Shown piece after piece: positions 2,078 through 26,497 of a stretch of 32,000 nt of DNA; position 1 is the first letter of the stretch; each line of letters starts with the position of its first letter. The notes under the pieces are model-generated. The model saw only the letters and a program-made list of their open reading frames with translations, ran no database searches and was not told the origin of the DNA. Made by a program: the position numbers and the translations under genes. Source of the stretch: Nostoc punctiforme PCC 73102 (GTDB lineage: Bacteria > Cyanobacteriota > Cyanobacteriia > Cyanobacteriales > Nostocaceae); contig NC_010628.1 of the NCBI RefSeq assembly GCF_000020025.1, forward strand, positions 1,440,001 to 1,472,000. Reading direction: 5' to 3'.

Positions 2078-2867
<790 letters not shown>

Positions 2868-2875
2868 AATTTTCA

Positions 2876-2997
<122 letters not shown>

Positions 2998-3032
2998 CGA
3001 TATTATTTCATTTCAATATGGAGGTGAGTCCG

Positions 3033-3104
3033 ATGAAAAAGATTAATTCTTTCAACATCGAGCCTGAAGATAATTGCCAATACCCCAGCAAAAGAAACTG
3101 GTAG
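3033..3104 (+). CDS. Candidate micro-ORF (23 aa)
   Basis: ATG 3033 is preceded by ggaggtgag (3020-3028). It reads MKKINSFNIEPEDNCQYPSKRNW. Only the strong SD supports it. Confidence 0.25.
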   Translation: MKKINSFNIEPEDNCQYPSKRNW

Positions 3105-3202
3105 TCGCAATAGCGGCAGATATGATGGCAGCTTATGCAGCTACTACTTTTAGGGAGTAGTACCAACGATTTCGATACATTACATCAAAACTGGCAGTTG
3201 TT

Positions 3203-3274
3203 GCCGTGCCCCGATCGCAGAAGCTTACATAACTCTGCACAAGTTATACACAATGCTTCTACAACTTGCGCGGT
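3203..3274 (+). ncRNA. Y-RNA-like module Y5 (minimal: closing helix plus a single stem-loop)
   Basis: 5' GCCGUGCCCCGAUCGCAGAAGCUUACAUA pairs with 3' AUGCUUCUACAACUUGCGCGGU (GCCGUGC/GCGCGGU with G-U pairs, AGAAGC/GCUUCU). The interior is a single hairpin AUAACU-cugcaca-AGUUAU. Confidence 0.5.
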
Positions 3275-3302
3275 GACTTGATCGCCCCGCGTGCAACATC
3301 TG

Positions 3303-4770
<1,468 letters not shown>

Positions 4771-4946
4771 GGTTAGAATATGGCATTGCTTATTGTTAAG
4801 TCCGATGAGCAATGCTAATTCAATAGCTAACACCTAAAATGAAAAGTTTACTTTTATTAGAAATTTTAATAAATTGCTTGAAACAGATGACCAGGCAATT
4901 GAGAATTTCATTGCTATTATTTACTGCTATAGAACCCATTTGGAAT

Positions 4947-5084
4947 CTATAAATGTGCCAGCCGTTTGAGCATTAGCCTGATGAAACAAAGATTGAGGTT
5001 GGCAGTGGCATGGCCTAAAGTTCTCTCAAAGTTTTTCACCAAACTCTTACAACGTTCCATCCAAAACAAGGGTTTCAAGTTGGC
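4947..5084 (-). pseudogene. Transposase C-terminal remnant (IS4/IS5-type)
   Basis: The minus-strand frame reads ANLKPLFWMERCKSLVKNFERTLGHATANLNLCFIRLMLKRLAHL*. This matches the conserved C-terminal block of DDE transposases (…W…RC+SLV.+FE+…A….L.CI.L.L+R). A stop lies immediately upstream, so only ~45 codons remain. Confidence 0.5.
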
Positions 5085-5224
5085 TTATATTTTTAAAAAT
5101 TGTATTATAGTATACGTTACATTTGCTTAAGACAGTAATTCCTATTAGGCGATCTCAATCTTATTGAAGAAGAATTCAGAAGCCATAATTCAGCAATCTT
5201 GACTTTATGTTTGCTTGTTTTGAG

Positions 5225-5290
5225 ATGGCAAGAATAATTAACGCCTTCAGAGACAAGGAATCAAGACGATTTGCCAACCGAATCGCATAA
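5225..5290 (+). pseudogene. Possible HigB/RelE-type toxin N-terminal remnant (21 codons)
   Basis: MARIINAFRDKESRRFANRIA* resembles the N-terminus of HigB-like killer proteins (M I x S F x D K x T E x x F). It is truncated by a stop after 21 codons. The match is short, so this is weak. Confidence 0.3.
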
Positions 5291-5545
5291 TGACTTCCCC
5301 ACTTCCCAGTAGTGTGAAAAACACTGAGTGATCGCTAATTTAATTTGGGTACTGAGTGCTGTGGGACGTGTAGCCAGTGCTGAGTAAAAAATACTAGTCT
5401 ATAATCCCCAATTCCTCTTTCATCTGTTCTGGTGTATATAGTTCATGATGGCTATTTACTTTTCAAGTGGGAGAACTTACACCATTTTGGGATTAATAAA
5501 TGTGAAACCTCTCTGAAGAGAACAGGCTCCAAAAGGATAAAAACC

Positions 5546-6514
5546 ATGCACCAGCAACTTTTTTGTAAAGTTGTAACCAATATTCTTGGTAGAAAGACTG
5601 CTTTTTTTACCTCAGTATTAGCGATCGCCATATTTGGCATGGCCTGTACTCCAACTCGTGAAAGTTCATCTGCAACTCAACCAAACACTGCTCAGTCGCC
5701 TGCTAGCACTAACAGTCAAGCTGGAGAAGAACAAGGAACCATTACAATGGCGGTGATTCCCTGGCAGGTTTCAGCCGAACAAGAAAAGAAACTCCAACCT
5801 TTGGCTGACTATTTGTCTAAGGCACTAAAACGACCCTTTAAATTTGAAATTACTAAGGACTACACAACAGCAGTTGATTTCTTAGTCACAGGAAAAGTTG
5901 ATCTTGCCTACCTTGGGCCCAGTAGCTATATCGAAGCTCATCTTCGCGATCCGAAGATTGAGCCACTCGTTTCACCAATTAATCAAGAGACGAAACGACC
6001 TTGGTACACATCTGTAATTATTGTCAGCAGAAATAGTAGAATCAAAACTCTACAAGACTTAAAGGGCAAGCGATTTGCTTTTGTGAGTAAGTTATCGACT
6101 TCTGGATTTGTGGCACCAATGGCTTACTTTCAGCAAATTGGTATCAATCCAGAAAGAGACTTTGCGAAAGTGGTTTTCTCTGGTAGCCATGATAAATCAA
6201 AGCAAGCTTTAGTGAATGGGGAAGTAGATGCGATCGCGGATGATCGGCGTTCATATACTGAGCAAGTCAAAGAAAAGAAGATTGACTCAACAAAATACAC
6301 AATTATCTGGGAATCTGTTCCACTTCCTAGCGTACCTCTTGCTGCTTCTAGTAAAGTTTCCGTCGAATTGAAAGATGCTTTGAAAAAAGCCCTAATTGAC
6401 GCACCAGTGAATCTTGTAGACCCATCAGGCAGTATTGGAGTTGGCTATACTTTGGTGCAAGACGGAGATTACGACATCGTTAGAGAGTTGCAAAAGCGAG
6501 TTTCCAGCAAATGA
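5546..6514 (+). CDS. Periplasmic substrate-binding protein, PhnD/phosphonate-ABC-type family (probable accessory sensor partner)
   Basis: After an N-terminal signal/lipoprotein-like segment (FFTSVLAIAIFGMAC), the sequence reads ITMAVIPWQVSAEQEKKLQPLADYL...VDLAYLGPSSYIEA...GKRFAFVSKLSTSGFVAPM...SGSHDKS. These are typical PhnD-like type-2 binding-protein motifs. ATG 5546 is preferred over the GTG at 5432. No permease or ATPase genes are adjacent. Confidence 0.8.
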   Translation: MHQQLFCKVVTNILGRKTAFFTSVLAIAIFGMACTPTRESSSATQPNTAQSPASTNSQAGEEQGTITMAVIPWQVSAEQEKKLQPLADYLSKALKRPFKFEITKDYTTAVDFLVTGKVDLAYLGPSSYIEAHLRDPKIEPLVSPINQETKRPWYTSVIIVSRNSRIKTLQDLKGKRFAFVSKLSTSGFVAPMAYFQQIGINPERDFAKVVFSGSHDKSKQALVNGEVDAIADDRRSYTEQVKEKKIDSTKYTIIWESVPLPSVPLAASSKVSVELKDALKKALIDAPVNLVDPSGSIGVGYTLVQDGDYDIVRELQKRVSSK

Positions 6515-6527
6515 GGCTAATCAAGAT

Positions 6528-9257
6528 ATGCGGATAACGACCAAATGTATTGGATCGTCTGCGATCGTTCTGGGATTGGTTGCCTCTACCCAAATTGGAG
6601 GCGACCTTTTTATCAGGCAAGCAGAACAAAAAGCACAGGATACTCAGGCAAAAAATACTCAGGCTTTGACGACTATTCTGCAAATAAACGTCTCTTTGAA
6701 TAACGAAGTAGCCGCGCTGAAAGACATGATCTTGCTCAGACGCGATGCTTCCAATCTGGTGAAATATCAGGAAGCTCTATCTGGATTTACTAAAAATCTG
6801 GCTGAGTTAAAAAATTTAAAGCCAGAGATAAATTCAGAGTTAGTCAAGATCAGCGATCGCCATAGCTTGCTTGCCAATCTAATAATCGAATTAACTAATC
6901 AATCTAACACAGAGAAACCCTTAGAATTAGCTGAATCTCAACAGGATTTTCGAGTCATTAATGCTTTTTCTCGGGATATTGAACTTTACTTAAAGTTATT
7001 AACCCAGAAGCTTCAGCAACAGGATAGCTTCGCAAAGCAAGAGTTTAATAACTTTAAACAGACTACTCAACTTGCCAGACAAATTCTGCTTTTGTCCATT
7101 CTCGTAGTTTTTGTAGGTCAGTTATTGCTGATCCTTTTACCAGTAATTCGCTCGATTCAAAAGCTACAACAGGGAGCAGCAAAAATTGGAGATGGAAATC
7201 TAGAATACCGCCTGAATATTCAAACCGAAGACGAAATTCAAGAACTCGCAGAAGCTTTTAACCGAATGGCAGGCACTCTAGCTGAGTCCTATCGCTCTCT
7301 AGAGTTAAAAAAAGAGCTTGCTGATACAGCAAATCGTGCCAAAAGTGAGTTCTTAGCTAACATGAGCCATGAGTTACGAACTCCTCTTAACGGTATCCTG
7401 GGTTATGCTCAAATTCTCCAACGAGATAAAACTTTAACTGATAAACAGCAAGACGGCTTAAGAATTATTCACCAGTGCGGTTCACACCTATTAACATTAA
7501 TTAACGACATTCTAGATTTATCCAAAATAGAAGCCCAGAGAATGGAACTTTACAAAAGCGACTTTCATTTTCCGGCTTTTCTCCAGAGTGTAGTAGAAAT
7601 TTGTCGCATTCGTGCTGACCAAAAAGGCATTTCATTCATTTACCAACCAACTTCAGAATTACCTATTGGCGTTTGGGCAGATGAAAAGCGATTGCGGCAG
7701 GTCTTAATTAATCTACTAGGTAATGCCATTAAATTTACCGAAAAAGGAGGAGTGAGATTTACTATTAGCTCTGTAGACCAATTGTTAACCAATGAAAGTA
7801 ACCAAAAACCAATTCATAAAATTCGGTTTCAAATCATCGATACAGGAATTGGCATGAGTCAAGAACAGGTAGCGAAAATATTCTTACCATTTGAGCAAGT
7901 CGGAGAAGTTAAAAAGCAATCAGAAGGTACTGGATTAGGTTTAGCTATTAGTCAGCGAATTGTGCAACTAATGGATAGTACAATCCAAGTAAAAAGTGAA
8001 ATAGGTCAGGGCAGCACTTTTTGGATTGACTTGGATTTGCAAGAATCAGTGGATTGGATGCAATCAGCTAGAGTCATTTCTGCTGGCAAAATTGTCGGAA
8101 TCGCCACTGGTAAGCGCAGAATTTTGATTGTAGATGATAGGTGGGAAAACCGTTCTGTTGTGATGAATCTATTAGATGAAATTGGATTTGAAATTATAGA
8201 GGCCAGTGACGGTCAAGAAGGCTTAGATAAAGCTATGCAATTTCTACCGGACTTAATCATTACAGATTTAACAATGCCCGTAATGGATGGCTTTGAATTA
8301 ACGCGTCGCCTCCGCCAGCAACAAGAGTTTCAGGATTTGACCATCATAGTTTCATCTGCCAGCGTATTTGAATCTGACCAACACAAAAGTTTAGGAGTTG
8401 GTGCAGACGATTTTCTACCGAAACCTGTACACGCTGATGATTTACTTCAGAAGTTAGAAAAATATTTACAACTTGAATGGGTTTATGAAACTGTACCGGA
8501 GAAATCTGTAAATGAAACACAAAATACTATCCATAGCCCAAGTAGCTCTGTCGTAACTGCTGAAAGTACAATTGTTGGGATTACTGGCAATAAGCGAAAA
8601 ATCTTGATTGTAGATGATAATTTGGAAAACCGTTCTATTGTTGTCAATTTATTAGGGGATCTTGGTTTTGAAATAACGGAGGCAATTAATGGTCAAGACG
8701 GCTTAGATAAAGCAGTCGAGTTAAAACCTGATTTAATTATCACTGACTTGTCGATGCCAGTCATGAATGGCTTAGAAATGATCCGTCAGTTGCGTGTGTT
8801 GCCATTTGAGAATTTACCAATAATTGTTTCATCTGCCAGTGTATTTGAATCTGACCAGCATGAGAGTTTAGAGGGAGGTGGCAACGATTTTCTGCCTAAA
8901 CCAGTGCAAGCAAATGAATTGTTTCAGAAGTTACAGAAACACTTGCAATTTGAATGGATTTATGATGTTATCCAGAGTCAAGAAGGAGTTAAGGAAAACC
9001 AAAATCTAAAAGTTACTTCTGCTGATTCTCTGGTATCAGACACTTGCTTAATTTCTCCACCACCTGAAGAAATCGAGAAACTATTTGAGTTGGCGATGAG
9101 AGGTAATATCAAAGGCATTCGAGAGCAAGCCCAAAAGTTGAAACTTTTGGATGATAAATTTATACTATTTGCCGAACAATTAGAGCAACTTGCTAAAAGC
9201 TTTCAAATTGAAAAAATTAGGGAATTTATCCAACAATATCGAGGAGAAGAACAATGA
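6528..9257 (+). CDS. Hybrid sensor histidine kinase (2 TM periplasmic sensor, HAMP, HisKA, HATPase_c, two receiver domains, C-terminal HPt-like helical tail)
   Basis: The H-box is [14 protein letters not shown]. The N/G boxes are [12 protein letters not shown] and DTGIGM...GTGLGLAI. There are two REC domains (ILIVDD...[12 protein letters not shown]...KP and ILIVDD...[12 protein letters not shown]...KP). ATG 6528 is preferred because the track start at 6435 overlaps the upstream gene. The C-terminal tail ([20 protein letters not shown]) looks HPt-like but has no His at the expected position. Confidence 0.9.
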
Positions 9258-10681
9258 ATATACCTGTTCTGGAGACAGGGGTAATTTTGATTGTGGATGA
9301 TAATCCCAATAATTTGGAAGTACTATCTGAAACATTAATGGATACAGGTTGGGAGATATTGATTGCTGTAAATGGTGAAGGTGCGATCGCTCAAGCTGAA
9401 TACGCTTGTCCTGATATCATACTTTTAGATGTAATGATGCCTGGAATTGACGGATTTACAGCCTGCCAGCGTTTAAAGTCAAATCCTGTAACCTGTGATA
9501 TCCCCATAATTTTTATGACAGCTCTTTCTGAAACTGTCGATAAAGTAAAGGGTTTGAGTTTGGGAGCAGTGGATTACATTACTAAACCGTTTGAGCATGA
9601 AGAAGTACTAGCTCGTATCAAGACACATCTACAAATCCGTAATCTAACTAAGCAACTGCAAACTCATAATCAGCAACTTCAACAAGAAATAGCCGACCGT
9701 CTTGCAGTCGAAACCAAGTTACAAAAGCTGACTCAGGAGTTAGAGCAAAGGGTAGAAGAACGTACTTTTCAACTATCTCAAGCACTTCATAATTTTCAAC
9801 AAGCTCAGGTTCGTCTGCTACAGCAAGAAAAGATGTCAACCCTTGGTGAGTTAGTTGCTGGAATTGCTCATGAAATTAACAATCCAGTCAACTTCATTTT
9901 AGGAAATCTTAATCACGCCTCTGAATATACCCAAAACTTTATTGATTTGTTTCAACTTTATCAACAATATTATCCTAATCCCGAAGTAGAAATTCAGCAA
10001 AAAATAGATGAAATTGATCTTGATTTCTTAATGCAAGATTCTCCGCAAATTATGTCGTCTATGTACAAAGGAACAAAGCGCCTAGCACAGATGATTCATT
10101 CGCTTAGGCATTTTTCACGTCGGGATGATTCAGTTGTACAACCTATAGATATTCATGAAGGTATTGATAGCACGCTATTAATTTTACAATATCGCTTAAA
10201 AGCGAATTCAGAACGTTCCGAAATTCAGATTATTAAACATTATGGAACTTTGCCACCTGTAGAATGTTTTCCAGGCCCACTGAATCAAGTTTTTATGAAT
10301 CTCCTTGCTAATGCAATAGATGCTATAGAGGAGTCATTTATTACTAACACAAACTTTTCCAAAATTGCATCAAGTAGTGTTCATTTGTTATCGGTAGAAG
10401 ACAACGGAAAAATCACGATTCGCACTGCTCTACATAAACAAGGCTCAGTTGTAGTAATTAAAATTGCTGATAATGGCATCGGCATGACAGAAGAAGTCAA
10501 ACAACGGTTATCTGAACCAATGTTTACTACCAAACCTGTAGGAAAAGGCACAGGGTTAGGTTTATCTATAAGTCGGCAAATTATTGAGGAAAAACATGGT
10601 GGGACTCTCTCTTTTGTATCTGAGCCGGGGAAAGGCACAGAATTTTGTATTGAAATTCCTGTACTAAGTCAAAAAGCATAA
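9254..10681 (+). CDS. Response-regulator receiver fused to a histidine kinase (REC, coiled coil, HisKA-like, HATPase_c)
   Basis: The REC domain reads ILIVDDNPNNLEVL...IILLDVMMPGIDGF...KPF. The H-box is AGIAHEINNPVNF, and the ATP-lid motifs are DNGIGM and GKGTGLGLSI. The start overlaps the upstream stop as ATGA (9254-9257), suggesting translational coupling. Confidence 0.9.
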   Translation: MNIPVLETGVILIVDDNPNNLEVLSETLMDTGWEILIAVNGEGAIAQAEYACPDIILLDVMMPGIDGFTACQRLKSNPVTCDIPIIFMTALSETVDKVKGLSLGAVDYITKPFEHEEVLARIKTHLQIRNLTKQLQTHNQQLQQEIADRLAVETKLQKLTQELEQRVEERTFQLSQALHNFQQAQVRLLQQEKMSTLGELVAGIAHEINNPVNFILGNLNHASEYTQNFIDLFQLYQQYYPNPEVEIQQKIDEIDLDFLMQDSPQIMSSMYKGTKRLAQMIHSLRHFSRRDDSVVQPIDIHEGIDSTLLILQYRLKANSERSEIQIIKHYGTLPPVECFPGPLNQVFMNLLANAIDAIEESFITNTNFSKIASSSVHLLSVEDNGKITIRTALHKQGSVVVIKIADNGIGMTEEVKQRLSEPMFTTKPVGKGTGLGLSISRQIIEEKHGGTLSFVSEPGKGTEFCIEIPVLSQKA

Positions 10682-10741
10682 ATAACTAGGCAGTTACAAA
10701 ACAGTCTAATCAACGTCGAAATGCAGCGCGATCGCTAATAA

Positions 10742-10779
10742 TTATCTTCAGTAAAAAATACATTTTTTACTGAAGATAA
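10742..10779. terminator. Long perfect palindrome, probable (bidirectional) intrinsic terminator after the kinase operon
   Basis: ttatcttcagtaaaaaat-ac-attttttactgaagataa has 18-nt perfect arms containing A/T runs. It lies 60 nt after the stop at 10681. Confidence 0.6.
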
Positions 10780-10967
10780 AGTATAAACATATAAAAAAGT
10801 CCTGCCTACTCTGTACAGATATAGCTATAAACCAGATTTAAATATATGATATGCGATCGCCACATCTCAATGCCCGATCGCCAAAAAATGATAATCTAGC
10901 ATTTTTCCCTAATCAGTTAAGATAATCTTCATCAATCTTCTTTCCTTTTACCCTTCTCCTTGGAATT

Positions 10968-13900
10968 ATGACGCAGAAAGAGTTATTGCAACTGATAGAT
11001 CGTGCCGTGGCTGAGGGTTGGCGAGAGTTAGACTTGTCGGGGCAAGAGTTGACTGAGTTACCTGTGGAAATTGGTAAGTTGCAGCAGCTTGAGTCTTTGA
11101 TTTTGGGAAAGAAGGTTGAAGGTTATGAACGAGTAGGAGACCACTTTCTCGAAAAGGTTTCGGGCAACAATTTAAAAACGCTTCCACTGGAACTATTGGG
11201 TTTGCCTAATTTGCGTAAGTTGGATATTAGTGGCAATCCTTTAGAGAGCATTCCCGATGTGGTAACGCAAATACTGCATTTAGAGGAACTTATCTTAATT
11301 CGAGTAGAGCTAACTGAAATACCTGATGCGATCGCTAATTTAACCAATCTGACGCAGCTTATCCTCAGTTACAACCAAATAACCCAGATTCCAGAGGCGA
11401 TCGCTAAATTAAGCAATCTGACTGTGCTTATCTTCAGTGACAACAAAATAACCCAGATTCCAGAGGCGATCGCTAATTTAACCAATCTGACGCGACTTAA
11501 CCTCAGTTCCAACCAAATAACCCAGATTCCAGAGGTGATCGCTAAATTAACCAATCTGACGCTGCTTTACCTCAGTGGCAATCAAATTACTGAGATACCA
11601 GAGGCGATCGCGCAATTAACCAATCTGACGCTGCTTGACCTCAGTGACAACAAAATAACCGAGATTCCAGAGGCGATCACGCAATCAACCAATCTGACGG
11701 TGCTTGACCTCAGTAGCAACCAAATTACTAAGATACCAGAGGCGATCGCACAATTAACCAATCTGAAGCTGCTTTACCTCAGTGACAACCAAATTACTGA
11801 GATACCAGAGGCGCTCGCTAATTTAACCAATCTGATGCAGCTTCACCTCAGTAGCAACCAAATTACTGAGATACCAGAGGCGCTCGCTAATTTAACCAAT
11901 CTGACGCAGCTTTACCTCAGTGGCAACCAAATTACCGAGATTCCAGAGGCGCTCGCTAATTTACCCAATCTGACGCGGCTTTACCTCTATAGCAACCAAA
12001 TTACTGAGATACCAGAGGCGCTCGCTAATTTAACCAATCTGATCCAACTTGTCCTCTTTTCCAACCAAATTGCCGAGATTCCAGAGACGCTCGCTAATTT
12101 AACCAATCTGATCCAACTTGTCCTCTTTTCCAACCAAATTGCCGAGATTCCAGAGACGCTCGCTAAATTAACCAATCTGACGCGGCTTGACCTCAGATTC
12201 AACCAAATAACCCAGATTCCAAAGGTGATCGCTAATTTAACCAATCTGACAGAACTTCACCTCAGTAGTAACCAAATAACCCAGATTCCAGAGGCGCTCG
12301 CTAATTTAACCAATCTGACACAGCTTTACTTCAGTTCCAACCAAATAACCCAGATTCCAGGGGCGATCGCTAAGTTAACCAATTTGACGCAGCTTGACCT
12401 CAGTGGCAACCAAATTACCGAGATTCCAGAGGCGATTGAAAGTTTGTCGAAATTGGAAAAACTAGATTTACGGGGAAATCCGCTTCCTATTTCACCAGAG
12501 ATTTTAGGATCTTCTGATGATGTTGGTTCAGTTGAAGATATTTTCAATTACTTGCAATTACTCCGTAGCGGTGAAGTGCGTCCACTCAACGAAGCCAAAC
12601 TCTTGCTCATCGGACAAGGCAGCGTCGGCAAAACATCTCTCATCAAGCGACTAATCCGCAATGAATATGATGAGAAACAACCCCAAACCGACGGACTCAA
12701 TGTAGAAACTTGGAACGTGCAGGTCAATAGCAAAGACATCCGCCTGAATGTTTGGGACTTTGGCGGACAGGAAATTTATCATGCCACTCATCAGTTTTTT
12801 CTAACTAAGCGCAGCCTCTATCTCTTAGTCTGTAATTGTCGCACCAGCGAAGAAGAAAACCGCATCGAATATTGGCTGAAACTAATCGAAAGCTTCGGCG
12901 GAGAGTCCCCCGTGATTATCGTTGGCAACAAAAAAGACGAACAACCCTTGGACATAAACCGCAAGGCATTACGCGAAAAATATCCTAACATCCAAGAGAT
13001 TATCGAAACCTCCTGCCAAGATAATATCGGCATTGATGAACTTCGCACCGCCATTTTCCAGCAAGTCGGCAACCTCAAAGAAGTCTACGATCTTCTACCC
13101 CTGACATGGTTTGAGGTTAAACAACAACTCGAATCCATGCCCCAAGACTTCATCAGCTACAACCGCTACATCGGCATCTGCCACGAAAACAAAATTCCTG
13201 AAGAACAAAACCAAGATCAACTCATCGATCTCCTCCATCGGCTTGGCTTAGTTCTCAACTTCCGCGAGCATCCCATCCTCAAAAATACCAACGTCCTCAA
13301 ACCCAACTGGGTGACAGAAGGCATTTACGCGCTCCTGAGCGATGAAACCCTTAAAACTAAAACCAAAGGTATTTTCACCCCTGCCGATCTCACCCGCATC
13401 CTCAATTCAGAGCGCTACCCGACCGAACGTCATGGTTATCTGATCGAACTAATGAAGGAATTCGAGCTTGGCTTTGCACTAGAATGTCAGCCACCACAAT
13501 TTCTGATTGCGGGACTTCTGCCTAAAGACCAACCAGACAAAACAGAACTCCACGGCGAAACCCTGGAATTTCAATACCATTACAAAGTTCTCCCCGAAAG
13601 CATCATCTCCCGCTTCATCGTCAAAACCCACGAAAAAATTCATAACCAAATCTATTGGCGCAGTGGCGTAATGCTGCAATATCAAGAAAACAACGAAATC
13701 TACAACATTGCTCGGATCAAAGCCGATCCCGAAGACAAAAAAATCTTCATCACTATTAGCGAACGCCAAGAAACCCGCCGCTTATTTCTCGGCATCCTCC
13801 GCGATGTCTTCCAAAAAATCCACAAAAGTCTCCCCAATCTCGAAATCACCGAATGGGTTCCCGTCCCCAACCATCCCAAACATCCACCCCTCGACTACCA

Positions 13901-14525
13901 AGAACTCCTCGGACTCGAATCAATGGGTGAAAGTACAGTCATCATCGGCAAACTAAAATTAAAACTCGATTTGCGTCAACTACTTGATGGGTATGAAGAT
14001 ATAAGAACTCGACAAAGACAACAAATAGACAAAGGAATTATTGAACCATTCCCCATTAAGGAAAAAATTATGTCCGAAAGTATCAGAAACCAAATATTTG
14101 TTAGCTACAGTCATCAAGATGCAAAATGGTTAGCAGAACTGCAAAAACAACTAAAACCCTATATTCGTGCAGAAGGTTTGATCGTTTGGGATGACACCAA
14201 AATCAAACCTGGCGCAGAATGGAAAGCCGAGATTGAAAAAGCATTAGCCACGGCTAAGATTGCTATCCTGCTAGTCAGCCCTAACTTTATAGCCTCTGAT
14301 TTCATCGACAGACATGAACTTCCCCCCTTACTCAACGCAGCCGAACAAGAGGGATTAACAATTATCTGGATTCCAATTAGTGCAAGCTCATATAGAAAAA
14401 CCGAGATCGAAAAATACCAAGCTGCTCACCCTTCAAATAAACCCCTCGACAGTCTAAGTAAGGGAGAACGTAACCAAGCTTGGGTGAAAATTTGCGAAGA
14501 AGTCGAAGAGGCAATAAATTCATAA
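10968..14525 (+). CDS. ROCO-family protein with C-terminal TIR domain (LRR x ~20, Roc GTPase, COR, TIR)
   Basis: About 20 units of a 23-aa LRR (LTNLTQLxLSxNQITEIPEAIAx) are followed by a Roc GTPase with P-loop GQGSVGKT (12612-12635), DFGGQE and NKKD. A COR-like region comes next. The TIR domain runs from ~14094 (IFVSYSHQDAKWL...VWDD...ILLVSPNFIASDFIDRHELPPLL) and has a Glu at the position of the TIR catalytic glutamate. Confidence 0.9.
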   Translation: MTQKELLQLIDRAVAEGWRELDLSGQELTELPVEIGKLQQLESLILGKKVEGYERVGDHFLEKVSGNNLKTLPLELLGLPNLRKLDISGNPLESIPDVVTQILHLEELILIRVELTEIPDAIANLTNLTQLILSYNQITQIPEAIAKLSNLTVLIFSDNKITQIPEAIANLTNLTRLNLSSNQITQIPEVIAKLTNLTLLYLSGNQITEIPEAIAQLTNLTLLDLSDNKITEIPEAITQSTNLTVLDLSSNQITKIPEAIAQLTNLKLLYLSDNQITEIPEALANLTNLMQLHLSSNQITEIPEALANLTNLTQLYLSGNQITEIPEALANLPNLTRLYLYSNQITEIPEALANLTNLIQLVLFSNQIAEIPETLANLTNLIQLVLFSNQIAEIPETLAKLTNLTRLDLRFNQITQIPKVIANLTNLTELHLSSNQITQIPEALANLTNLTQLYFSSNQITQIPGAIAKLTNLTQLDLSGNQITEIPEAIESLSKLEKLDLRGNPLPISPEILGSSDDVGSVEDIFNYLQLLRSGEVRPLNEAKLLLIGQGSVGKTSLIKRLIRNEYDEKQPQTDGLNVETWNVQVNSKDIRLNVWDFGGQEIYHATHQFFLTKRSLYLLVCNCRTSEEENRIEYWLKLIESFGGESPVIIVGNKKDEQPLDINRKALREKYPNIQEIIETSCQDNIGIDELRTAIFQQVGNLKEVYDLLPLTWFEVKQQLESMPQDFISYNRYIGICHENKIPEEQNQDQLIDLLHRLGLVLNFREHPILKNTNVLKPNWVTEGIYALLSDETLKTKTKGIFTPADLTRILNSERYPTERHGYLIELMKEFELGFALECQPPQFLIAGLLPKDQPDKTELHGETLEFQYHYKVLPESIISRFIVKTHEKIHNQIYWRSGVMLQYQENNEIYNIARIKADPEDKKIFITISERQETRRLFLGILRDVFQKIHKSLPNLEITEWVPVPNHPKHPPLDYQELLGLESMGESTVIIGKLKLKLDLRQLLDGYEDIRTRQRQQIDKGIIEPFPIKEKIMSESIRNQIFVSYSHQDAKWLAELQKQLKPYIRAEGLIVWDDTKIKPGAEWKAEIEKALATAKIAILLVSPNFIASDFIDRHELPPLLNAAEQEGLTIIWIPISASSYRKTEIEKYQAAHPSNKPLDSLSKGERNQAWVKICEEVEEAINS
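11200..12500 (+). repeat. 69-bp-period coding tandem repeat array (LRR units)
   Basis: About 18 consecutive 69-bp units are highly similar at the DNA level (…aatttaaccaatctgacgcagctt…aaccaaattac[ct]gagat[at]ccagaggcg[ac]tcgct…). Confidence 0.85.
12021..12158 (+). repeat. Perfect 69-bp tandem duplication (2 x 69 bp) inside the LRR array
   Basis: 12021-12089 and 12090-12158 are identical (ctcgctaatttaaccaatctgatccaacttgtcctcttttccaaccaaattgccgagattccagagacg). Together they encode LANLTNLIQLVLFSNQIAEIPET twice. Confidence 0.95.
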
Positions 14526-14738
14526 AATAGAACTTATGTCAACATTAACCAAATTCAACTTAAATGTTATAGAAATAGGGAACAAAGTAGACACAGAACT
14601 AAAGCTTCCCTCTGGTAAATAGACTTTTATAACTTCAGGGGCGATCGCAAATTCAAGCTTCACAGCTATTAAACAACAAACAAGCGATCGCTATTCATCA
14701 ATAAATTTTAGGCATAATATCAAGGATTCAGTGGTCTA

Positions 14739-14779
14739 CAATCAGTGGGGGCTTGTACCCACCACTGATTGCAATTTTT
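14739..14779 (+). terminator. Hairpin plus T-run, candidate intrinsic terminator
   Basis: caatcagtgg (14739-14748) pairs with ccactgattg (14762-14771) and is followed by caattttt. It lies ~215 nt after the ROCO-TIR stop and next to the 3' end of the convergent VOC gene. Confidence 0.45.
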
Positions 14780-14798
14780 AATTAATAATTTTTAATTT

Positions 14799-15191
14799 TT
14801 AATTGGAGCAAAGCGACTTGACGAACTCTGCGATCTCTATACGATTTCCACCAGGATCGCGGATGAAAAACCGCACACATCCTGGTAGTGGTCGTTGATC
14901 GGGAATAATTTCTACTCCATACTCTTTTAGGTGGTTTTCAAAGGTGTTCAAGTCATCGACTTGGAAACAAAAATGTCTTCTAGATAGTTGGTTATTGGCA
15001 TTTTTCTCTCTACTAACGTGCAATTCAATGTTTCCCACCTGATACCAGGCTCCTGAATCGTTTTTGACCGCATCAGGTCTGGGAATTTCAGTTAATCCCA
15101 AAATTCTGCTGTAGAAAGATAGCATTGCATCCTCTACCTCAAGAGAATAAGTTGCCTGAATATGATGAACTGCTTTGAGCGCCATTTTCAC
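14799..15191 (-). CDS. VOC-family (glyoxalase/bleomycin-resistance/dioxygenase fold) protein
   Basis: The 130-aa protein has the typical VOC pattern: HHIQATYSLEVEDAMLSFYSRILGL, HVSRE, HFCFQVDD and FIRDPGGNRIEI. Confidence 0.8.
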   Translation of the reverse strand: MKMALKAVHHIQATYSLEVEDAMLSFYSRILGLTEIPRPDAVKNDSGAWYQVGNIELHVSREKNANNQLSRRHFCFQVDDLNTFENHLKEYGVEIIPDQRPLPGCVRFFIRDPGGNRIEIAEFVKSLCSN

Positions 15192-21382: not shown

Positions 21383-24300
21383 TTACCAAGGATTACCAAC
21401 CATTGTGAATCCAGACCAATAATAAGGATGGGTAAGTAATTGCTCCCCTTCATCAGCACTGTTAGTAGGTAAAGACAAGTTCCCCACTACTCCTAAACCT
21501 TCTAATTGACCATTTTTAACGTAAATCTGCCCTTTAGCCATAGCTACCTGAGCCTGTCTGAGGGCTTCTGCCTTAATTGGAGCTGTCCTCAAGTTTTGAT
21601 AAAATTTCGTCATCAAGGCTGCTGTACCGGCATCATTAACCGACCAAAGACTAGCAACACTAGTTTTCACGCCTGCCAGCACTGCTAAACCTGCAAATCC
21701 AAGCTCTGACTCTTCATCTCCTAATGCTGTTCTACAAGCACTCAGCACGAGCATTTCAACTTCGGGTTCATTAAAGCGCAACTGTCGTAATTGGTTCAAG
21801 CGTAACTTGTCCTCCCACAGTTGAATATAGGAATTACTCAAAGCGCCGGTAGTAAAATCGGCATGGGTTGCCATGTGAATAATCCCAAAAGGTTGTTGGC
21901 GGCGGATAGTTTTGAGATTTTCTAAGGTAGCTTGCTTGTCTAACAATAATTTGCCCTGCCAAAGTTTAGACACCAGTGTTGATAACTCTAGGGGAACTGC
22001 TGGTAAAGGCTCTTGTCCTTGTGTACTTTGAGAAACTCCCATCGCTAAGACTTGAGATTTTTTAATGTCTTTATAAAGAGTGTTAGTCAAGCTGATACTG
22101 GGCATCAAGCCAATGCTATATTTTTCTACTAGAAACCCCTTGCCATCATGAAGTGCTGCCATTGGAGTTGAACGTAACCCCATATCTGGTAAAAAGACCA
22201 AATTATTGATTTCTCTTGCCTGCAAATCTGCCTCTAATGGTGCAATAATCCAGCGATAAAGTTGTTGAGATGGACGCAAATAACCGGTGCGGCGACGGTT
22301 TTGTGGACTAACTATTTGGTCACGAAATTCCTGAGCTACTTGAATAACTTTGGCTTTGGTCGTTTCTGGAATGCGCTTGCGAATAGGGTTGCCTTTTCCA
22401 GTTACTACGACTATTTCTAGTTGGTCGCTATCCTGCTCTGCTAGAGTATTTAATTGTTTAGTAAATTTTTGAGCTTTGCCCAAATTTCTCTCTGGTATTA
22501 TCTCCACAGGAACAAAACTGATGTAAATAAATGCAGGTTTAACACCAGTCGCTTCTTCAATTTTGCGAGCAATTTCTTTGGCATCATCTAGTGTTTTAAT
22601 TCTAGGAGTCGGGATACCTAAATGGTCGGCAAAATCATCTGTGAATTTATCTTCGGGCGTGGGATCGGTATTAATAACGGGGTTGTCAATCTTAGGATTA
22701 TTGGGGTCAGGGACATTCGGTTTACCTGGAGTGCATTGGAATGAGCAAGGGGGAGGATTCGGGGTAAAAGTCGGAGTAGGAATTGTAGTAGGAATTGTAG
22801 TAGGAGTTGGGGTAGGAATGGTGGGAGGAATTTGGCTGACATTGATTCCGACCTGTACAGGTGCAGAAGACGAAACGCGGTCATTTGCACTAATTACAAA
22901 GGCATTTAGTGAACCATTTACATCAGTCGGAGGGGTATACACCAAAGTATCGTCGCTAGATAAGGTAGTGACACCAGGAATGACGGGAAGGCCATTGACA
23001 GTCAGATTTCCTGTATTCACCACATCAACCTGGATGGAGGTGATGTCATTATTAGCATCGCTGACCAGTGCAGCCAAACTAGAGAATGTCAAGGTCACTG
23101 GTTGATTGGTCTGGGTGTTGGGTAGCGATGAGTTTGCCGTTAATACAGGCGGAGTGTTGACGGAAGTAATGGTGATGCCGGTTGGGGTACCAATCGCATC
23201 TCCACCAGTTGGCAATACTGGAAAGTTACCCGAAGCGATAGTTGTACCGCCTCCCACATCAATTGTTCCAGCTGTGCCATTAGCACTCGTCGCATCACCT
23301 ACAATAAATGGCACGTTACCTGGACCACCATCATGTCGAATTGTGACAGTGCCTCCGGCGATGCTAGTGGTTACTCCTGCTCCAGAATCGAAAATTCCGC
23401 CGGTGGCGATGGTAGTACCTACCCCTATTCCTTGAACTAGTCCGTTTGTCAGCACTTGCACATTGCCACCTTGAACAGTGTTTCCATCAACAAAATCGTC
23501 TGCTACGGACTGTGTGTTGATGTTGGTAAAACTAATATTGCTACCAGCAGTATTGGTAGTCTGTAAAGTAACGTTGCCACCTGTAACATTTCCAGTTCCA
23601 TCGACTCCAATGGCGATCGCTGAGGCATTAATGGCATCATTAACGGTGATATTCTCTGTGGCAGTTAAGGTGACTGCGCCAGCCGTACCAGTAAAATCGC
23701 CACCTCCGGTCTTGAATACAGATGAGTTAATCGCCCCAGTGGTAATACTACCTGCTGTAGTTGTTGCAACTATATCGCCACCACGACCTAAGCTACCAGC
23801 ATCACTGGAAAAGGAATTAATTCTATCTGTGAGGATATTGCCTGCCGCAGTCAAAGTCACTGTCCCTGCGGTGTTGACACCATTATTACCAGTATCACTG
23901 GTGTTAATCTGATTAAGAGTAATTCCACCATTGCTACTTACGACTTGAACATTACCTGCTGAATAGCCTTGTCCACTGGCAATAATGTTACCTGTACTAA
24001 TATTGCCGGTCGTCGCAGACAAAGTTATATCCCCGCTTCTAGCGAAATTACGAGTTGTGTTTAGATTTCCTAGTAATAAGCTGGCTCCTGAAATATTAAT
24101 GGCTCCTCCGGTTGTCTGGATTGTGTTGGTAGGGTCAACAAAGTTCACAGAACCGTTTTGTGAGGTTAGGCTGAAGCTACCACCGCCCAAGTTTAAAGTA
24201 GCAACACCAGCGGTAGTCACTCCGGGTGTAGCTCCGGTGATGTCATTGATTGTAATATTGCCTATAGCCTGTAAATTGATATTTACACCCGAAGCTGCGA

Positions 24301-26497
24301 TCGCACCCCAAGAAACGGTGTTAGCCCCAATATCTGGATCGTTAAAGGCAATGTTGCCTGCTGTGGCATCAAAATCACCTGTCCCTGCTGCGGCATCGAT
24401 AATAGTTAATGTGCTGGGGTCTAGTAATAAAGTGCCAAAGCTGCCATTAGGGGCTGAAGCATCTACTAAACCGTTGAAGGTTAAGAAATTTTTGCCTGAT
24501 ACTTCTACAAAACCACCATTCCCGGCATTTGCTCCTCCACGAGCCGAAATTTTACCAAAATATTGAGTTGTGTCGTTACCCCAAACAATTACCTGTCCGC
24601 CATTTCCATTCAAATGGCTATCGGCATTAATGACTGACTTTGAGTCAACATAAGTCCGATCTGCGTTGGGTACAGTCCCCTTACCTTGGTAATCACCGCC
24701 AATTAGCACAGTACCACCGCCATTCGTTCCAGAGGCGTTAATATTGGCATCAACCAGCGCAACTTTTTTACCCAAAGCAGTTACCGTACCGCCTGTTTGA
24801 CTTGATACATCTACTTTGCCTGAAACAATTGTTGTCCCTGGAGTTGTGGGAATTGTGACGTTAGAGCCTGTCAATTTTACAGTCCCATCAGGATTGGCAG
24901 TTAACCCTGTGTTACCAACTGTGAGCAATTCAGGTATTGAGGCGATGGGAATTGTCCAGTTATTGGGTTGGGTGCTACTAGAGGCGAGGGGCTGAATTTC
25001 CAGACTCAGCAGATTTCCTGGCTGACTGAGACGCACCCAATTTTGTCCTGGTACGGATGTGATAGAAATCTGCCCTCCCGGTGCCGAAAGTTGCCCGGTG
25101 TTGACTACAGTACCACCCAATAAATTTAAATTTTGCCCAACACCTACTGCCAAATTTCCAGCATTGGCGATCGCTCCTGGCTGGTTCATACTAAAGGCAA
25201 ATCCGTTGGGGTTTCCAACTAAAGCAGCGTAGTCATTAACACCAATGGCATTGAACCAACTGCTGCCAAAACCAATGCCATTGGCTGTTGTCACTGTGAA
25301 AGCACCAGGCACATTTAAGGTGGCGTTTGATCCAAAAATAAATCCGGCTGGATTCATCAAGAAAAGGTTAGCATTGCCACCTGTTACCTGAATTAAGCCA
25401 TTGATAACCGAGGCATTCCCGCCTGTAATTCGACCAAGGATATTTTGTAGTGCCGGACTAGCTTGGAAATTGGCGATTTGTTCTGGTGAAATCCCAAACT
25501 GTTGAAAGCTGTGGAAGAGGTTAGCACCATCTCCAGAAGTTATACCCCCGGTGATATCTAGTCGATTACCATTGGGTGTAACAATTGTGTTTGTCCCATC
25601 GGCAGCAGGGACAATTTGTTGTGCCTGAGATAATCCCATGCTCGTGACTGTCACTAAAGGCAAAATAGCTAGGACTGAAGCGGCGATTTTGTGTAGTAGA
25701 GGTTTTTTACGCCGCAAGATGAAGCGACCTGCGGGCAATTCCACATCGATTTGTAACTTTTCTGCTAATCCGCGTCGCCAAAGTGCTTGAGCGATCGCCT
25801 TCTGTGACCAGAGTATTTGTTCTGTTCTTCTGGTGACAGACATGCTTTGAGAGTGAAGCCGATAGAGGTAGAGTGGCTCTTGCACTCGGCGCACCTGGGT
25901 TACTTCTGAAAGTCGCAGACATAGGTCATAATCATAGGCACAACCAGAGAACGATTCGTTAAAACCTCCCACTCGGTCGTAAACCGACCGCCGCATCAGG
26001 CGGAAGTGAAACGTCATGAAGTTTACCAAAAGATTGTCTTGGGAGTAAGCAATATTACAGCGATGACCGTAGCCTATGACAATACCCTTTTCATCAATAT
26101 TTAAGTAGTCGGTGTAAACAAATCCCGTTTCTGGGTGGCGATTCAGTACTGTAGCGGTTTGGGCAAGGGCGGTGGGGGCTAGGATATCATCACTGTCTAC
26201 TATACCGATGTAAATGCCACTAGTTTGGGCGATCGCTGCCTTACAAGCCGCAGAAACTCCTTGATGCTGTGCTTCTACTACCCGCACTCGCCCATCTTGT
26301 TGAGCATAAGCGTTTGCGATCGCCACCGATCCGTCTGTGGAGCCATCATCCCAAATTAGTAGCTCAAAGTCTTGCCATGTTTGTGCTAATACGCTAGCGA
26401 TCGCTACCCCAAGGTAAGACTCCCGGTTGTAATTGACGATGACTATGGAGATCAGTGGTGGCATCGAAGTATTCTCAAGTTTTCTACCTGTTATCAC
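21383..26497 (-). CDS. Giant TpsA-type exoprotein read in frame as glycosyltransferase family 2, internal signal peptide, TPS (hemagglutination-activity) domain, beta-helical repeats, Pro/Thr linker and C-terminal CHAT protease domain
   Basis: The GT2 motifs are ISIVIVNYNRESYL and LLIWDDGSTDGS…IVDSDD. They are followed by RRKKPLLHKIAASVLAILPLVTVTSMGLSQAQQ, a typical signal peptide. The TPS-domain block is NRLDITGG…GANLFHSFQQF…NILGRITGGNASVINGLIQV…ANLFLMNPAGFIFG. Long G/N/T-rich beta-helix repeats and the linker IPPTIPTPTPTTIPTTIPTPT come next. The CHAT region has HMATHA (His) and LVLSACRTA (Cys). An in-frame TTG at 25717 would start a conventional signal-peptide-first TpsA. Confidence 0.85.
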   Translation of the reverse strand: MITGRKLENTSMPPLISIVIVNYNRESYLGVAIASVLAQTWQDFELLIWDDGSTDGSVAIANAYAQQDGRVRVVEAQHQGVSAACKAAIAQTSGIYIGIVDSDDILAPTALAQTATVLNRHPETGFVYTDYLNIDEKGIVIGYGHRCNIAYSQDNLLVNFMTFHFRLMRRSVYDRVGGFNESFSGCAYDYDLCLRLSEVTQVRRVQEPLYLYRLHSQSMSVTRRTEQILWSQKAIAQALWRRGLAEKLQIDVELPAGRFILRRKKPLLHKIAASVLAILPLVTVTSMGLSQAQQIVPAADGTNTIVTPNGNRLDITGGITSGDGANLFHSFQQFGISPEQIANFQASPALQNILGRITGGNASVINGLIQVTGGNANLFLMNPAGFIFGSNATLNVPGAFTVTTANGIGFGSSWFNAIGVNDYAALVGNPNGFAFSMNQPGAIANAGNLAVGVGQNLNLLGGTVVNTGQLSAPGGQISITSVPGQNWVRLSQPGNLLSLEIQPLASSSTQPNNWTIPIASIPELLTVGNTGLTANPDGTVKLTGSNVTIPTTPGTTIVSGKVDVSSQTGGTVTALGKKVALVDANINASGTNGGGTVLIGGDYQGKGTVPNADRTYVDSKSVINADSHLNGNGGQVIVWGNDTTQYFGKISARGGANAGNGGFVEVSGKNFLTFNGLVDASAPNGSFGTLLLDPSTLTIIDAAAGTGDFDATAGNIAFNDPDIGANTVSWGAIAASGVNINLQAIGNITINDITGATPGVTTAGVATLNLGGGSFSLTSQNGSVNFVDPTNTIQTTGGAINISGASLLLGNLNTTRNFARSGDITLSATTGNISTGNIIASGQGYSAGNVQVVSSNGGITLNQINTSDTGNNGVNTAGTVTLTAAGNILTDRINSFSSDAGSLGRGGDIVATTTAGSITTGAINSSVFKTGGGDFTGTAGAVTLTATENITVNDAINASAIAIGVDGTGNVTGGNVTLQTTNTAGSNISFTNINTQSVADDFVDGNTVQGGNVQVLTNGLVQGIGVGTTIATGGIFDSGAGVTTSIAGGTVTIRHDGGPGNVPFIVGDATSANGTAGTIDVGGGTTIASGNFPVLPTGGDAIGTPTGITITSVNTPPVLTANSSLPNTQTNQPVTLTFSSLAALVSDANNDITSIQVDVVNTGNLTVNGLPVIPGVTTLSSDDTLVYTPPTDVNGSLNAFVISANDRVSSSAPVQVGINVSQIPPTIPTPTPTTIPTTIPTPTFTPNPPPCSFQCTPGKPNVPDPNNPKIDNPVINTDPTPEDKFTDDFADHLGIPTPRIKTLDDAKEIARKIEEATGVKPAFIYISFVPVEIIPERNLGKAQKFTKQLNTLAEQDSDQLEIVVVTGKGNPIRKRIPETTKAKVIQVAQEFRDQIVSPQNRRRTGYLRPSQQLYRWIIAPLEADLQAREINNLVFLPDMGLRSTPMAALHDGKGFLVEKYSIGLMPSISLTNTLYKDIKKSQVLAMGVSQSTQGQEPLPAVPLELSTLVSKLWQGKLLLDKQATLENLKTIRRQQPFGIIHMATHADFTTGALSNSYIQLWEDKLRLNQLRQLRFNEPEVEMLVLSACRTALGDEESELGFAGLAVLAGVKTSVASLWSVNDAGTAALMTKFYQNLRTAPIKAEALRQAQVAMAKGQIYVKNGQLEGLGVVGNLSLPTNSADEGEQLLTHPYYWSGFTMVGNPW

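Follow-up and report, generated by a model that had tools for sequence, protein, structure and literature searches.

The window analysed here, a 32,000-nucleotide stretch of Nostoc punctiforme PCC 73102 (NC_010628.1, positions 1,440,001 to 1,472,000), carries at 10968..14525(+) a gene whose product joins leucine-rich repeats (LRRs), a Ras-like GTPase module and a TIR domain in one chain. The gene is a single intact, ATG-started open reading frame (ORF) of 1185 amino acids (aa) plus stop, identified by ORF calling and Pfam domains, and its product runs from N to C terminus through LRR, Roc, COR-A, COR-B, about 30 disordered residues and TIR; we call it ROCO-TIR. We regard it as somewhat better than an even proposition that ROCO-TIR is a single-polypeptide cytoplasmic conflict sensor of the LRR-Roc-COR class, acting in immunity or abortive infection.

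By sequence, ROCO-TIR fits a published conflict-system class as one more member. Kaur, Iyer, Burroughs & Aravind (eLife 2021; PMC8195603, section 15, Fig. 6D) described proteins with LRRs, an AP-GTPase (Roc) and COR that end in at least 24 alternative C-terminal effectors, including TIR. They named the class 'AP-GTPase systems' and, on purely computational grounds, predicted a counter-invader role (PMC8195603). An original prediction made from the DNA of the window had read ROCO-TIR as an NLR-like sensor-switch-effector; this reading is reasonable and compatible with the gene, but it is not novel, since both the architecture and the immune role had already been predicted (PMC8195603). ROCO-TIR shares with the published class the variable N-terminal LRRs, Roc, COR and a C-terminal effector slot able to hold TIR, and does not differ from it in kind. 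The present analysis adds the multiple tails on near-identical cores and the variation of the LRR concave face, as well as three features that the published work does not report: a probable intragenic recombination tract, a break in composition between core and tail, and a gene of Nostoc edaphicum split by an element resembling a miniature inverted-repeat transposable element (MITE).

Architecture of the ROCO-TIR protein

All Pfam matches in ROCO-TIR exceed the gathering (curated) cut-offs, with E-values far outside chance expectation, and they bear out the order of LRR, Roc-COR and C-terminal TIR given in the original prediction. LRR families span approximately aa 20-510 (LRR_4, 1.2e-89; LRR_8, 3.5e-83). 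Neither Pfam, PADLOC nor NCBIfam returned a NACHT, NB-ARC or AAA-STAND match, and the central module is Roc-COR. NCBIfam gave only sub-threshold LRR and small-GTPase matches beside a faint Thoeris-type one.

The switch module is complete. Pfam and a sequence search against solved structures place the Roc (Ras-like) G domain at aa 544-700 (12597..13067, +), where the Pfam Roc match covers aa 544-657 (1.7e-33) and a Ras match (3.2e-22) extends to aa 700. Its G motifs are intact, with the P-loop GQGSVGKT at aa 549-556 (nucleotides (nt) 12612-12635), DFGGQ at aa 597 and NKKD at aa 654. COR-A follows at aa 711-851 (13098..13520, +; Pfam, 1.8e-41; 5e-85 to 4WNR, 2e-75 to 3DPU) and COR-B at aa 864-1008 (13557..13991, +; 3.1e-36 in Pfam, and by the same structure search). 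For aa 520-1018 the closest solved structures are 4WNR (5e-85), then 3DPU, 6HLU and 8R4B (~1e-75), then LRRK2 (~4e-27), and the alignment to 3DPU/6HLU is contiguous through Roc-COR (query residues 16-490). The entries 3DPU, 6HLU and 8R4B are deposited as 'Rab family protein', and we take them to be Chlorobium tepidum Roco (CtRoco). Because the closest solved structures are prokaryotic Roco proteins, ROCO-TIR appears to be a bona fide ROCO protein and not merely a Ras-like one; the Roc motifs, with COR-A and COR-B directly C-terminal to Roc, likewise assign it to the ROCO family at the sequence level.

CtRoco and 4WNR share the LRR-Roc-COR arrangement and clear sequence homology with ROCO-TIR, and they offer the best available model of its switch. 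In CtRoco, COR-B is the dimerisation device, and GTP binding alters the monomer/dimer state. To our knowledge, CtRoco has no effector domain and no known biological role, and research has used it only as a structural stand-in for LRRK2, the Parkinson's kinase. ROCO-TIR differs from it in carrying a TIR domain after COR-B.

Upstream of the switch, ORF translation shows an N-terminal cap with irregular LRRs (aa 1-123; 10968..11336, +), which leads into a regular array of 16 units of 23 aa, or 69 bp, delimited by tandem-repeat and unit analysis (aa 124-491; 11337..12440, +). A divergent terminal unit, translated as 'SLSKLEKLDLRGNPLPISPEILG', closes the array (aa 492-514; 12441..12509, +). At the DNA level the array is a tandem repeat of 69-bp period with 16.1 copies and 86% matches (11328-12436). 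Unit comparison showed units 11 and 12 (12027..12164, +) to be identical at 69/69 nt, a very recent tandem duplication. Amino-acid entropy across the units peaks at positions 7, 9 and 12 (1.9-2.4 bits), followed by positions 6 and 11 (1.2 bits), while most scaffold positions stay at or below 0.7 bits. The five variable positions (6, 7, 9, 11 and 12) correspond to the x residues of LxxLxLxxN, which are exposed to solvent on the concave face. In five loci, the pooled between-unit ratio of non-synonymous to synonymous rates (dN/dS) is 1.3-3.2 at the five concave-face codons versus 0.25-1.6 at the other eighteen, a crude comparison in that LRR units are not independent. This pattern fits a diversifying binding surface. 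The repetitive, recently duplicated array remarked on in the original prediction is thus borne out by its identical pair of units and its concave-face diversification.

ROCO genes lie very often at contig ends (for example L009, L011 and L014-L017), and many of the database proteins are marked 'partial'. The 69-bp array probably breaks short-read assemblies, and LRR copy numbers in public sequences are therefore unreliable.

At the other end of the protein, the TIR domain (aa 1041-1185; 14088..14522, +) was recovered by Pfam, PADLOC, phmmer, AlphaFold2 (AF2) and Foldseek. Pfam TIR_2 matches aa 1043-1138 (8.4e-14). The best PADLOC match of the TIR is the profile ThsB1, a ThsB-type TIR (aa 1042-1184, 5e-17), and the SAVED_TIR profile matches through its TIR part only (5e-14; profile positions 13-104 of 404). 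A 'SYSH' motif stands at aa 1046. Alignments and the AF2 model place a putative catalytic glutamate, E1117 (codon 14316..14318, +), in 'DRHELPPLL' at the N-terminal end of helix alpha-C. The tail used as sole query yielded 762 relatives, many of them stand-alone cyanobacterial TIR proteins of 150-290 aa (55-65% identity) and some fused to COR-B, WD40 or PF19961 domains. E1117 (E99 of the aligned fragment) is invariant in 62/62 relatives, as are F1112, W1074, D1076 and G1082. In phmmer alignments, E1117 pairs with the Glu of PdTIR 3H16 ('KEL'; match 2.4e-5), with that of 7UXR ('YEL') and with residue 84 of TIR-SAVED 7QQK, presumably the catalytic glutamates of these proteins.

The AF2 model of the TIR, computed from a 62-sequence alignment, reached a pLDDT of 86.4 and a pTM of 0.79, showed the expected alternating order of strands and helices, and set E1117 directly before helix 100-109, which is alpha-C. 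In a Foldseek search against the PDB the top 50 matches were all TIR domains (probability 0.99-1.0, TM 0.4-0.57), among them TLR1, RPP1, RPS4, L6, C. elegans TIR-1, SARM1, AbTir, SPARTA TIR-APAZ, BtpA and PdTIR; of these, SARM1, AbTir, RPP1 and SPARTA are NAD+-cleaving enzymes. The original prediction had proposed structure prediction as a check, and the outcome upholds the TIR fold with E1117 at the start of alpha-C, along with its claim of a SYSHxD start and a Glu at the catalytic position. As judged from alignments and model, the TIR bears the hallmark of the enzymatic class and is a putative NAD+-cleaving enzyme (NADase).

Between COR-B and TIR lies an AT-rich linker (~aa 1009-1040; 13992..14087, +), with a GC content at third codon positions (GC3) of 0.15 for 13992-14069. 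Its residues 1019-1040, the first ~22 that were modelled, have pLDDT below 50, which suggests that a flexible tether joins COR-B and TIR.

Conserved cores, alternative tails and probable recombination

A distribution search with aa 520-1185 of ROCO-TIR matched 26 clusters (Nostoc, Anabaena azotica, Dolichospermum) end to end, TIR included, at 83-95% identity. The next ~94 clusters matched in the Roc-COR part only, at 80-95% identity, and lack the TIR. Beyond the conserved 'LLDGYE' that closes COR-B, the tails of these near-identical cores fall into at least four kinds: a TIR tail of ~174 aa; a tail of 165-185 aa, 'NNFQGANIANFANEVKDNASQQ...' or 'NNFQGANIANFANEVKDNASQQASNF...' (the PCC 7120 type or B-type, for example L002 10001-13375); a tail of ~58 aa ending '...SDRRSKTFNQHGEGDNFGGDRVEGNKTG' or 'GEGDNFGGDRVEGNKTG'; and tails of 27-46 aa. 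At least three non-TIR types occur among the proteins P0027-P0120, on cores 80-95% identical. The PCC 7120-type paralogue is labelled '+DUF4404' in the source-data table of Kaur et al. 2021 (PMC8195603).

Genes of the TIR type and of the PCC 7120 type are paralogous and occupy different loci. Among the genes compared, Anabaena PCC 7120 has only paralogues without TIR. The locus of P0001 (L001) is fully syntenic with the window, and P0029 of Nostoc C052 has an adenosine deaminase gene on one side and PIN/XisH/XisI genes on the other. We considered whether TIR and non-TIR versions could be alleles of one locus; this is ruled out by the B-type gene of Nostoc C052, which lies elsewhere, and by the published table, which lists both types in one genome. 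The surroundings of the TIR type themselves differ in A. azotica, Nostoc TCL26-01 and N. edaphicum, with at least four recurring contexts among 19 loci, and no partner gene recurs near the TIR-type ROCO across these 19. ROCO-TIR is hence a single-gene unit without a conserved partner. In the window it is separated from its neighbours by 286 nt upstream and 273 nt downstream, followed by a convergent gene, and is probably monocistronic. A promoter and terminator scan of 10600-14900 gave counts not above those of shuffled sequence (6 vs 7.7 and 4 vs 4.5), so that its matches carry no weight as signs of a terminator or of a promoter, whether the gene's own or internal.

In a scan of species-representative genomes, the TIR was present in 16/80 confirmed loci, all from Nostoc plus A. 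azotica. TIR-less cores reach Pseudanabaena (85% COR identity), Planktothrix and Phormidium at 67-94% identity, which suggests horizontal spread. A search of the plasmid collection found no close copy (best match 42% identity, COR part only), and ROCO-TIR is not evidently plasmid-borne. HIP1 palindromes (GCGATCGC) are present around the gene, and its best database matches are from Nostoc spp.

Beyond these close relatives, a query of COR-B plus TIR matched 25,282 cluster representatives, in most cases by way of the TIR. Among the best 150 of the 25,282, at least ~25 representatives (clusters at 50% identity) match COR-B and TIR jointly at 35-53% identity. Pfam confirmed LRR-Roc-COR-TIR in P0242, P0261 and P0335, and found TIR-AAA-Roc-COR-PNP in P0284. 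From the joint matches and these three confirmations, ROCO-TIR proteins appear to form a populous and diverse class. In the published source-data table the string 'AP-GTPase+COR+TIR' occurs ~570 times, corresponding to ~280 proteins because each appears to be listed in two columns, with examples such as Nostoc punctiforme Npun_F6039 (1109 aa) and Nostoc linckia GCF_002368035.1, which has two ROCO-TIR proteins and one TIR-less paralogue (PMC8195603). Several paralogues per genome with different tails are also described there (PMC8195603).

The gene is mosaic in composition and in divergence. GC3 is 0.47-0.53 in the LRR-Roc-COR core (10968-13991) versus 0.32-0.36 in the C-terminal tail (13992-14522), the latter near the value of neighbouring genes, and the window shows this break, as do three TIR-type orthologues and one B-type paralogue (L001-L004). 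We compared the window with L001, from a syntenic and ~99% identical strain. The flanking genes, both intergenic regions and the linker with TIR are 97.0-99.9% identical in nucleotides, with a synonymous divergence (dS) of 0-0.036 (0.028 for the TIR tail). Identity falls to 93.8% in the N-terminal cap, 82.6% in the LRR array, 93.5% in Roc and 95.0% in COR, with a Roc-COR dS of 0.17. The N-terminal cap, LRR, Roc and COR-A thus make up a tract (~11000..13500, +) that is 5-17% diverged from L001 in the nucleotide comparison. Mismatch density is ~6-8 per 100 nt from just past the start codon to ~13,500 and 1.7 per 100 nt thereafter, which sets the 3' boundary of the tract near the COR-A/COR-B border. 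A breakpoint at the COR-B/TIR junction is ruled out by the same fall in mismatch density.

The two halves of the gene also have different closest relatives. For Roc-COR-A these are loci of other species, TIR-type (L019, 96.8%) as well as TIR-less (L020, 96.2%), with L001 outside the top 14. For COR-B plus TIR the closest relative is L001 (98.3%). Furthermore, the 68 nt directly before the start codon (window 10900-10967; L002 9933-10000) are 100% identical in a B-type paralogue of another species at another locus, whose core is 94-96% identical to that of the window; the shared cassette therefore seems to include the 5' leader. The simplest reading of these alignments is that homologous recombination or gene conversion, from a donor that was not found, passes the sensor-switch half from one ROCO copy to another. 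Roc-COR has a dN/dS of 0.11-0.17, and the TIR tail one of 0.26-0.55; these ratios point to purifying selection on all modules, and thus to Roc-COR and TIR that are functional in a gene that is not decaying. Just downstream of the TIR gene, an 86-nt stretch (14564-14649) is 85% identical to L002 13317-13402, which comprises the B-type 3' end and sequence beyond it. A 3' element common to both genes, or a small repeat, could account for this.

A proposed GTPase-gated TIR effector and its alternatives

We infer the trigger, the direction of the nucleotide switch, the NADase activity with its product, and the protective phenotype. The concave face of the 16-unit LRR solenoid would serve as the recognition surface, binding a trigger or guarding a host factor. 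Roc-COR would act as a GTP-dependent conformational and oligomerisation switch, as in CtRoco, with the trigger altering its nucleotide and oligomeric state. The TIR, hanging from COR-B on its flexible linker of ~30 residues, would be the NAD+-consuming effector. Since contacts between TIRs are required for an active site, a trigger that altered Roc-COR assembly would bring TIRs into catalytic contact and switch on NAD+ cleavage, and the predicted outcome is growth arrest or death of the infected cell within the filament.

The logic of this model has precedents with other switches. STAND/NLR receptors, both plant TNLs (RPP1, ROQ1) and bacterial proteins (Avs, bNACHT, TIR-STAND), likewise combine a repeat sensor, an NTP switch and a proximity-activated TIR NADase, and the TIR model of the window protein matches the TIRs of RPP1, RPS4 and L6. 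However, the switch of ROCO-TIR is a Ras-like GTPase with COR rather than a STAND ATPase, which makes the protein an analogue and not a STAND/NLR member, and its TIR is C-terminal, whereas that of TNLs is N-terminal. Bacterial TIR effectors (Thoeris ThsB, CBASS TIR-SAVED 7QQK, SPARTA TIR-APAZ, AbTir, PdTIR) have homologous TIRs in which the Glu aligns. The window gene differs from them in having no ThsA, SAVED, Argonaute or cyclase partner, and its activation would come from the fused GTPase switch. Because it has no SAVED domain, ROCO-TIR is not a CBASS TIR-SAVED protein. Among eukaryotic ROCO proteins, LRRK2 has a homologous Roc-COR tandem; outputs in animals are a kinase (LRRK2) or a death domain (DAPK1), and in algae they are absent or different, unlike the TIR of the window protein. 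Brown algae have LRR-ROCO genes whose LRRs diversify by exon shuffling and whose products are proposed to be immune receptors (PMC11378527). By comparison, the LRRs of the window gene diversify through 69-bp tandem repeat dynamics and recombination.

Several observations weigh against a conflict sensor. The Roc-COR core keeps 86-95% protein identity across Nostocales genera and beyond, with dN/dS ~0.15; such conservation is atypical of fast-evolving defence genes and could reflect a conserved cellular partner. In place of the Trp found in the usual TIR 'W..E' motif, the protein has an invariant Phe (F1112; F94 of the aligned fragment). A profile alignment (hhalign) of the TIR family against the human SARM1 TIR ended at residue 91, short of the Glu, because SARM1 carries an insertion, and so speaks neither for nor against the pairing of E1117 with SARM1 E642. 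PADLOC returned no model matching the Roc-COR part of the protein. On the window neighbours it gave only spurious receiver-domain matches (SduA, PD-T4-6) on two histidine kinases, so that the window is not a defence island, with no defence gene among the window neighbours. The 122 neighbour ORFs of the 19 TIR-type loci, viewed without a control set, are mostly housekeeping (Rieske, TspO, S6PP, exonuclease VII, RuvA), and a type II restriction-modification pair, PbeA, MADS-like, HNH/PtuB-like and Uma2 genes are scattered among few loci. In the literature we found no experimental study of any bacterial ROCO-TIR, including in a 2024 survey of E. coli TIRs and a December 2025 preprint on TIR signalling, and no prokaryotic ROCO with a demonstrated biological function. 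The statement of the original prediction that no ROCO-TIR defence protein has been characterised still seems true.

One alternative is a role other than antiviral defence, in which ROCO-TIR would be a regulatory or cell-fate protein (stress or developmental death, kin or self recognition, a scaffold) and the TIR an interaction module or an endogenously controlled NADase. Besides core conservation and ordinary chromosomal neighbourhoods, this account draws on the near-ubiquity of LRR-Roc-COR paralogues in Nostocales, the majority of which lack a toxin-like tail, and on the published link of AP-GTPase systems to a multicellular habit and apoptosis-like processes (PMC8195603). We nevertheless consider it unlikely, as the invariant putative catalytic Glu argues for enzymatic use, diversification of the concave face and changing LRR copy number fit a conflict system better, and the TIR version is patchy, with intragenic recombination and a COR identity to Pseudanabaena that suggests horizontal spread. 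Slightly less probable still is a Thoeris-like arrangement, whereby the TIR would make a cADPR-type or ADPR-derived messenger for an effector encoded elsewhere in the genome, without itself depleting NAD+. The leading PADLOC match to ThsB1 speaks for it, as do the faint NCBIfam match to the Thoeris type III protein ThcB4 and the many Thoeris types with diverse effectors, which also occur in Cyanobacteriota (10.64898/2025.12.03.692087). Yet the ThsB-type TIR is here a domain inside a much larger protein, and Thoeris effectors normally adjoin their TIR gene; no ThsA or other Ths effector gene, and no ThsA-type, SIR2, SLOG, Macro or SAVED effector, was found in the window or recurring beside the 19 homologous loci. 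Lacking an adjacent effector, the system is not Thoeris. Finally, we give very little credence to a secreted, host-directed LRR/TIR effector (internalin-like or Tcp-like) in Nostoc symbiosis: homologues are annotated 'internalin A' in the sources, NCBIfam gives sub-threshold LRR matches to type III effectors and InlA, and many homologues come from lichen cyanobionts, but those matches lie far below curated cut-offs and cover LRRs only, no hydrophobic segment resembling a signal peptide is present at the N-terminus (MTQKELLQLIDRAVAEGW...), the middle of the protein is a cytoplasmic GTPase switch, and the family also occurs in free-living genera.

A further alternative, not mutually exclusive with the conflict-sensor model and compatible with it, is that the gene makes two products. 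The original prediction had pointed to an internal ATG with an AAGGA-like Shine-Dalgarno sequence before the TIR, and both are present (AAGGA at 14058-14062 and the in-frame ATG of M1035 at 14070-14072; together 14058..14072, +). Were this a real start, a free TIR of ~150 aa beside full-length ROCO-TIR could seed or buffer TIR assembly. Met1035 is kept in 19/19 TIR-type loci and AAGGA in 15/19, and cyanobacteria commonly have stand-alone TIR proteins of 150-160 aa (55-65% identity). As a start site, however, the case is weak: AAGGA is simply part of Lys-Glu codons (AAG GAA), is lost synonymously in L012 and through altered residues in A. azotica and Nostoc TCL26-01, and the sequences are too alike for their conservation to inform. 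The consensus stand-alone homologues begin ~8 residues upstream of M1035, promoter-like matches do not exceed shuffled expectation, and we found no positive evidence for use of the internal start in the fused gene. We therefore hold two products to be improbable.

The split gene of N. edaphicum (L085) bears on the same site. There, a 148-nt element (9036-9183) is inserted exactly between '...AATTAT' and the ATG equivalent to Met1035. This MITE-like element is predicted to form a long hairpin (-58 kcal/mol), and L010, L043 and L075 contain partial copies of it. Its insertion leaves a 1018-aa ROCO (6001-9057) that ends after COR-B and linker, followed by an intact 150-aa TIR ORF (9184-9636) that retains the Glu. 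This variant shows that the ROCO and TIR parts are separable precisely at Met1035. It favours a free TIR product without being proof of internal start use, and the split may be a recent pseudogenisation.

Downstream of this pair, L085 10330-11790 encodes a Pfam 'GT4-conflict' glycosyltransferase domain, an effector type also found fused to AP-GTPase proteins (PMC8195603). In L078, a Nostoc metagenome-assembled genome, the ROCO-TIR frame is broken into ORFs of 867 aa (4126-6729) and 242 aa (6707-7435), either by a frameshift or by an assembly error; P0122 is the 242-aa piece.

Returning to the conflict-sensor model, we offer one tentative extension, possible although we would not lean on it: Nostocales ROCO proteins may form a combinatorial immune repertoire. 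A highly conserved cassette (5' leader-LRR-Roc-COR-A) that recombines horizontally and ectopically would be shuffled among paralogues that keep their own COR-B-linked output (TIR, 'DUF4404'-type or short Gly/Asp-rich tails). One recognition specificity could then be re-wired to different effectors. In the TIR version, the GTP-driven monomer/dimer cycle of COR-B would directly determine how far apart two tethered TIRs lie; such a GTPase-timed NADase switch would work without a STAND oligomer and make a tractable bacterial model of Roc-COR control over an output domain, as in LRRK2. The contrast between a recombining sensor-switch half and a clonal COR-B plus TIR, together with the diversifying concave-face codons, gives a testable pointer to where selection acts.

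If the conflict-sensor model is correct, a Ras-like GTPase would be a third kind of NTP switch among TIR-activating sensors, which otherwise use STAND ATPases or sense nucleotide second messengers. ROCO-TIR would give a simple read-out of the control that the GTPase cycle of Roc-COR exerts on a fused effector, and a ROCO protein with an output as easily assayed as NAD+ cleavage would permit a direct test of the 2021 prediction of immune or apoptosis-like functions in multicellular bacteria.

Neighbouring genes and other features of the window

The window contains one ROCO copy. Its neighbours encode a hybrid histidine kinase, a response-regulator kinase, a glyoxalase-fold protein, a dienelactone hydrolase and ABC binding proteins. 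A functional link of ROCO-TIR to the upstream two-component genes was considered and is ruled out, as synteny holds only in the closest strain and is absent from A. azotica, TCL26-01, N. edaphicum and the remaining contexts.

Further along, 21383-26497(-) encodes a 1704-aa protein in which a glycosyltransferase-2 domain and a TPS secretion domain are joined to a CHAT (caspase-like) protease at the C terminus. Its gene adjoins that of a ShlB/FhaC-type outer-membrane transporter at 26671-28506(+), and by this adjacency the two are a two-partner-secretion pair with an unusual cargo.

Near the 5' end of the window, ARAGORN called a tRNA-like gene at 1232-1303 whose anticodon is given as two bases ('ct') and left undetermined, and a normal tRNA-Phe lies at 2900-2972. 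A VWA_CoxE-like ORF at 3337-4770(+) is a single frame of 477 aa in the window, and two genes (224 and 245 aa) are called in L001 at 2371-3804.

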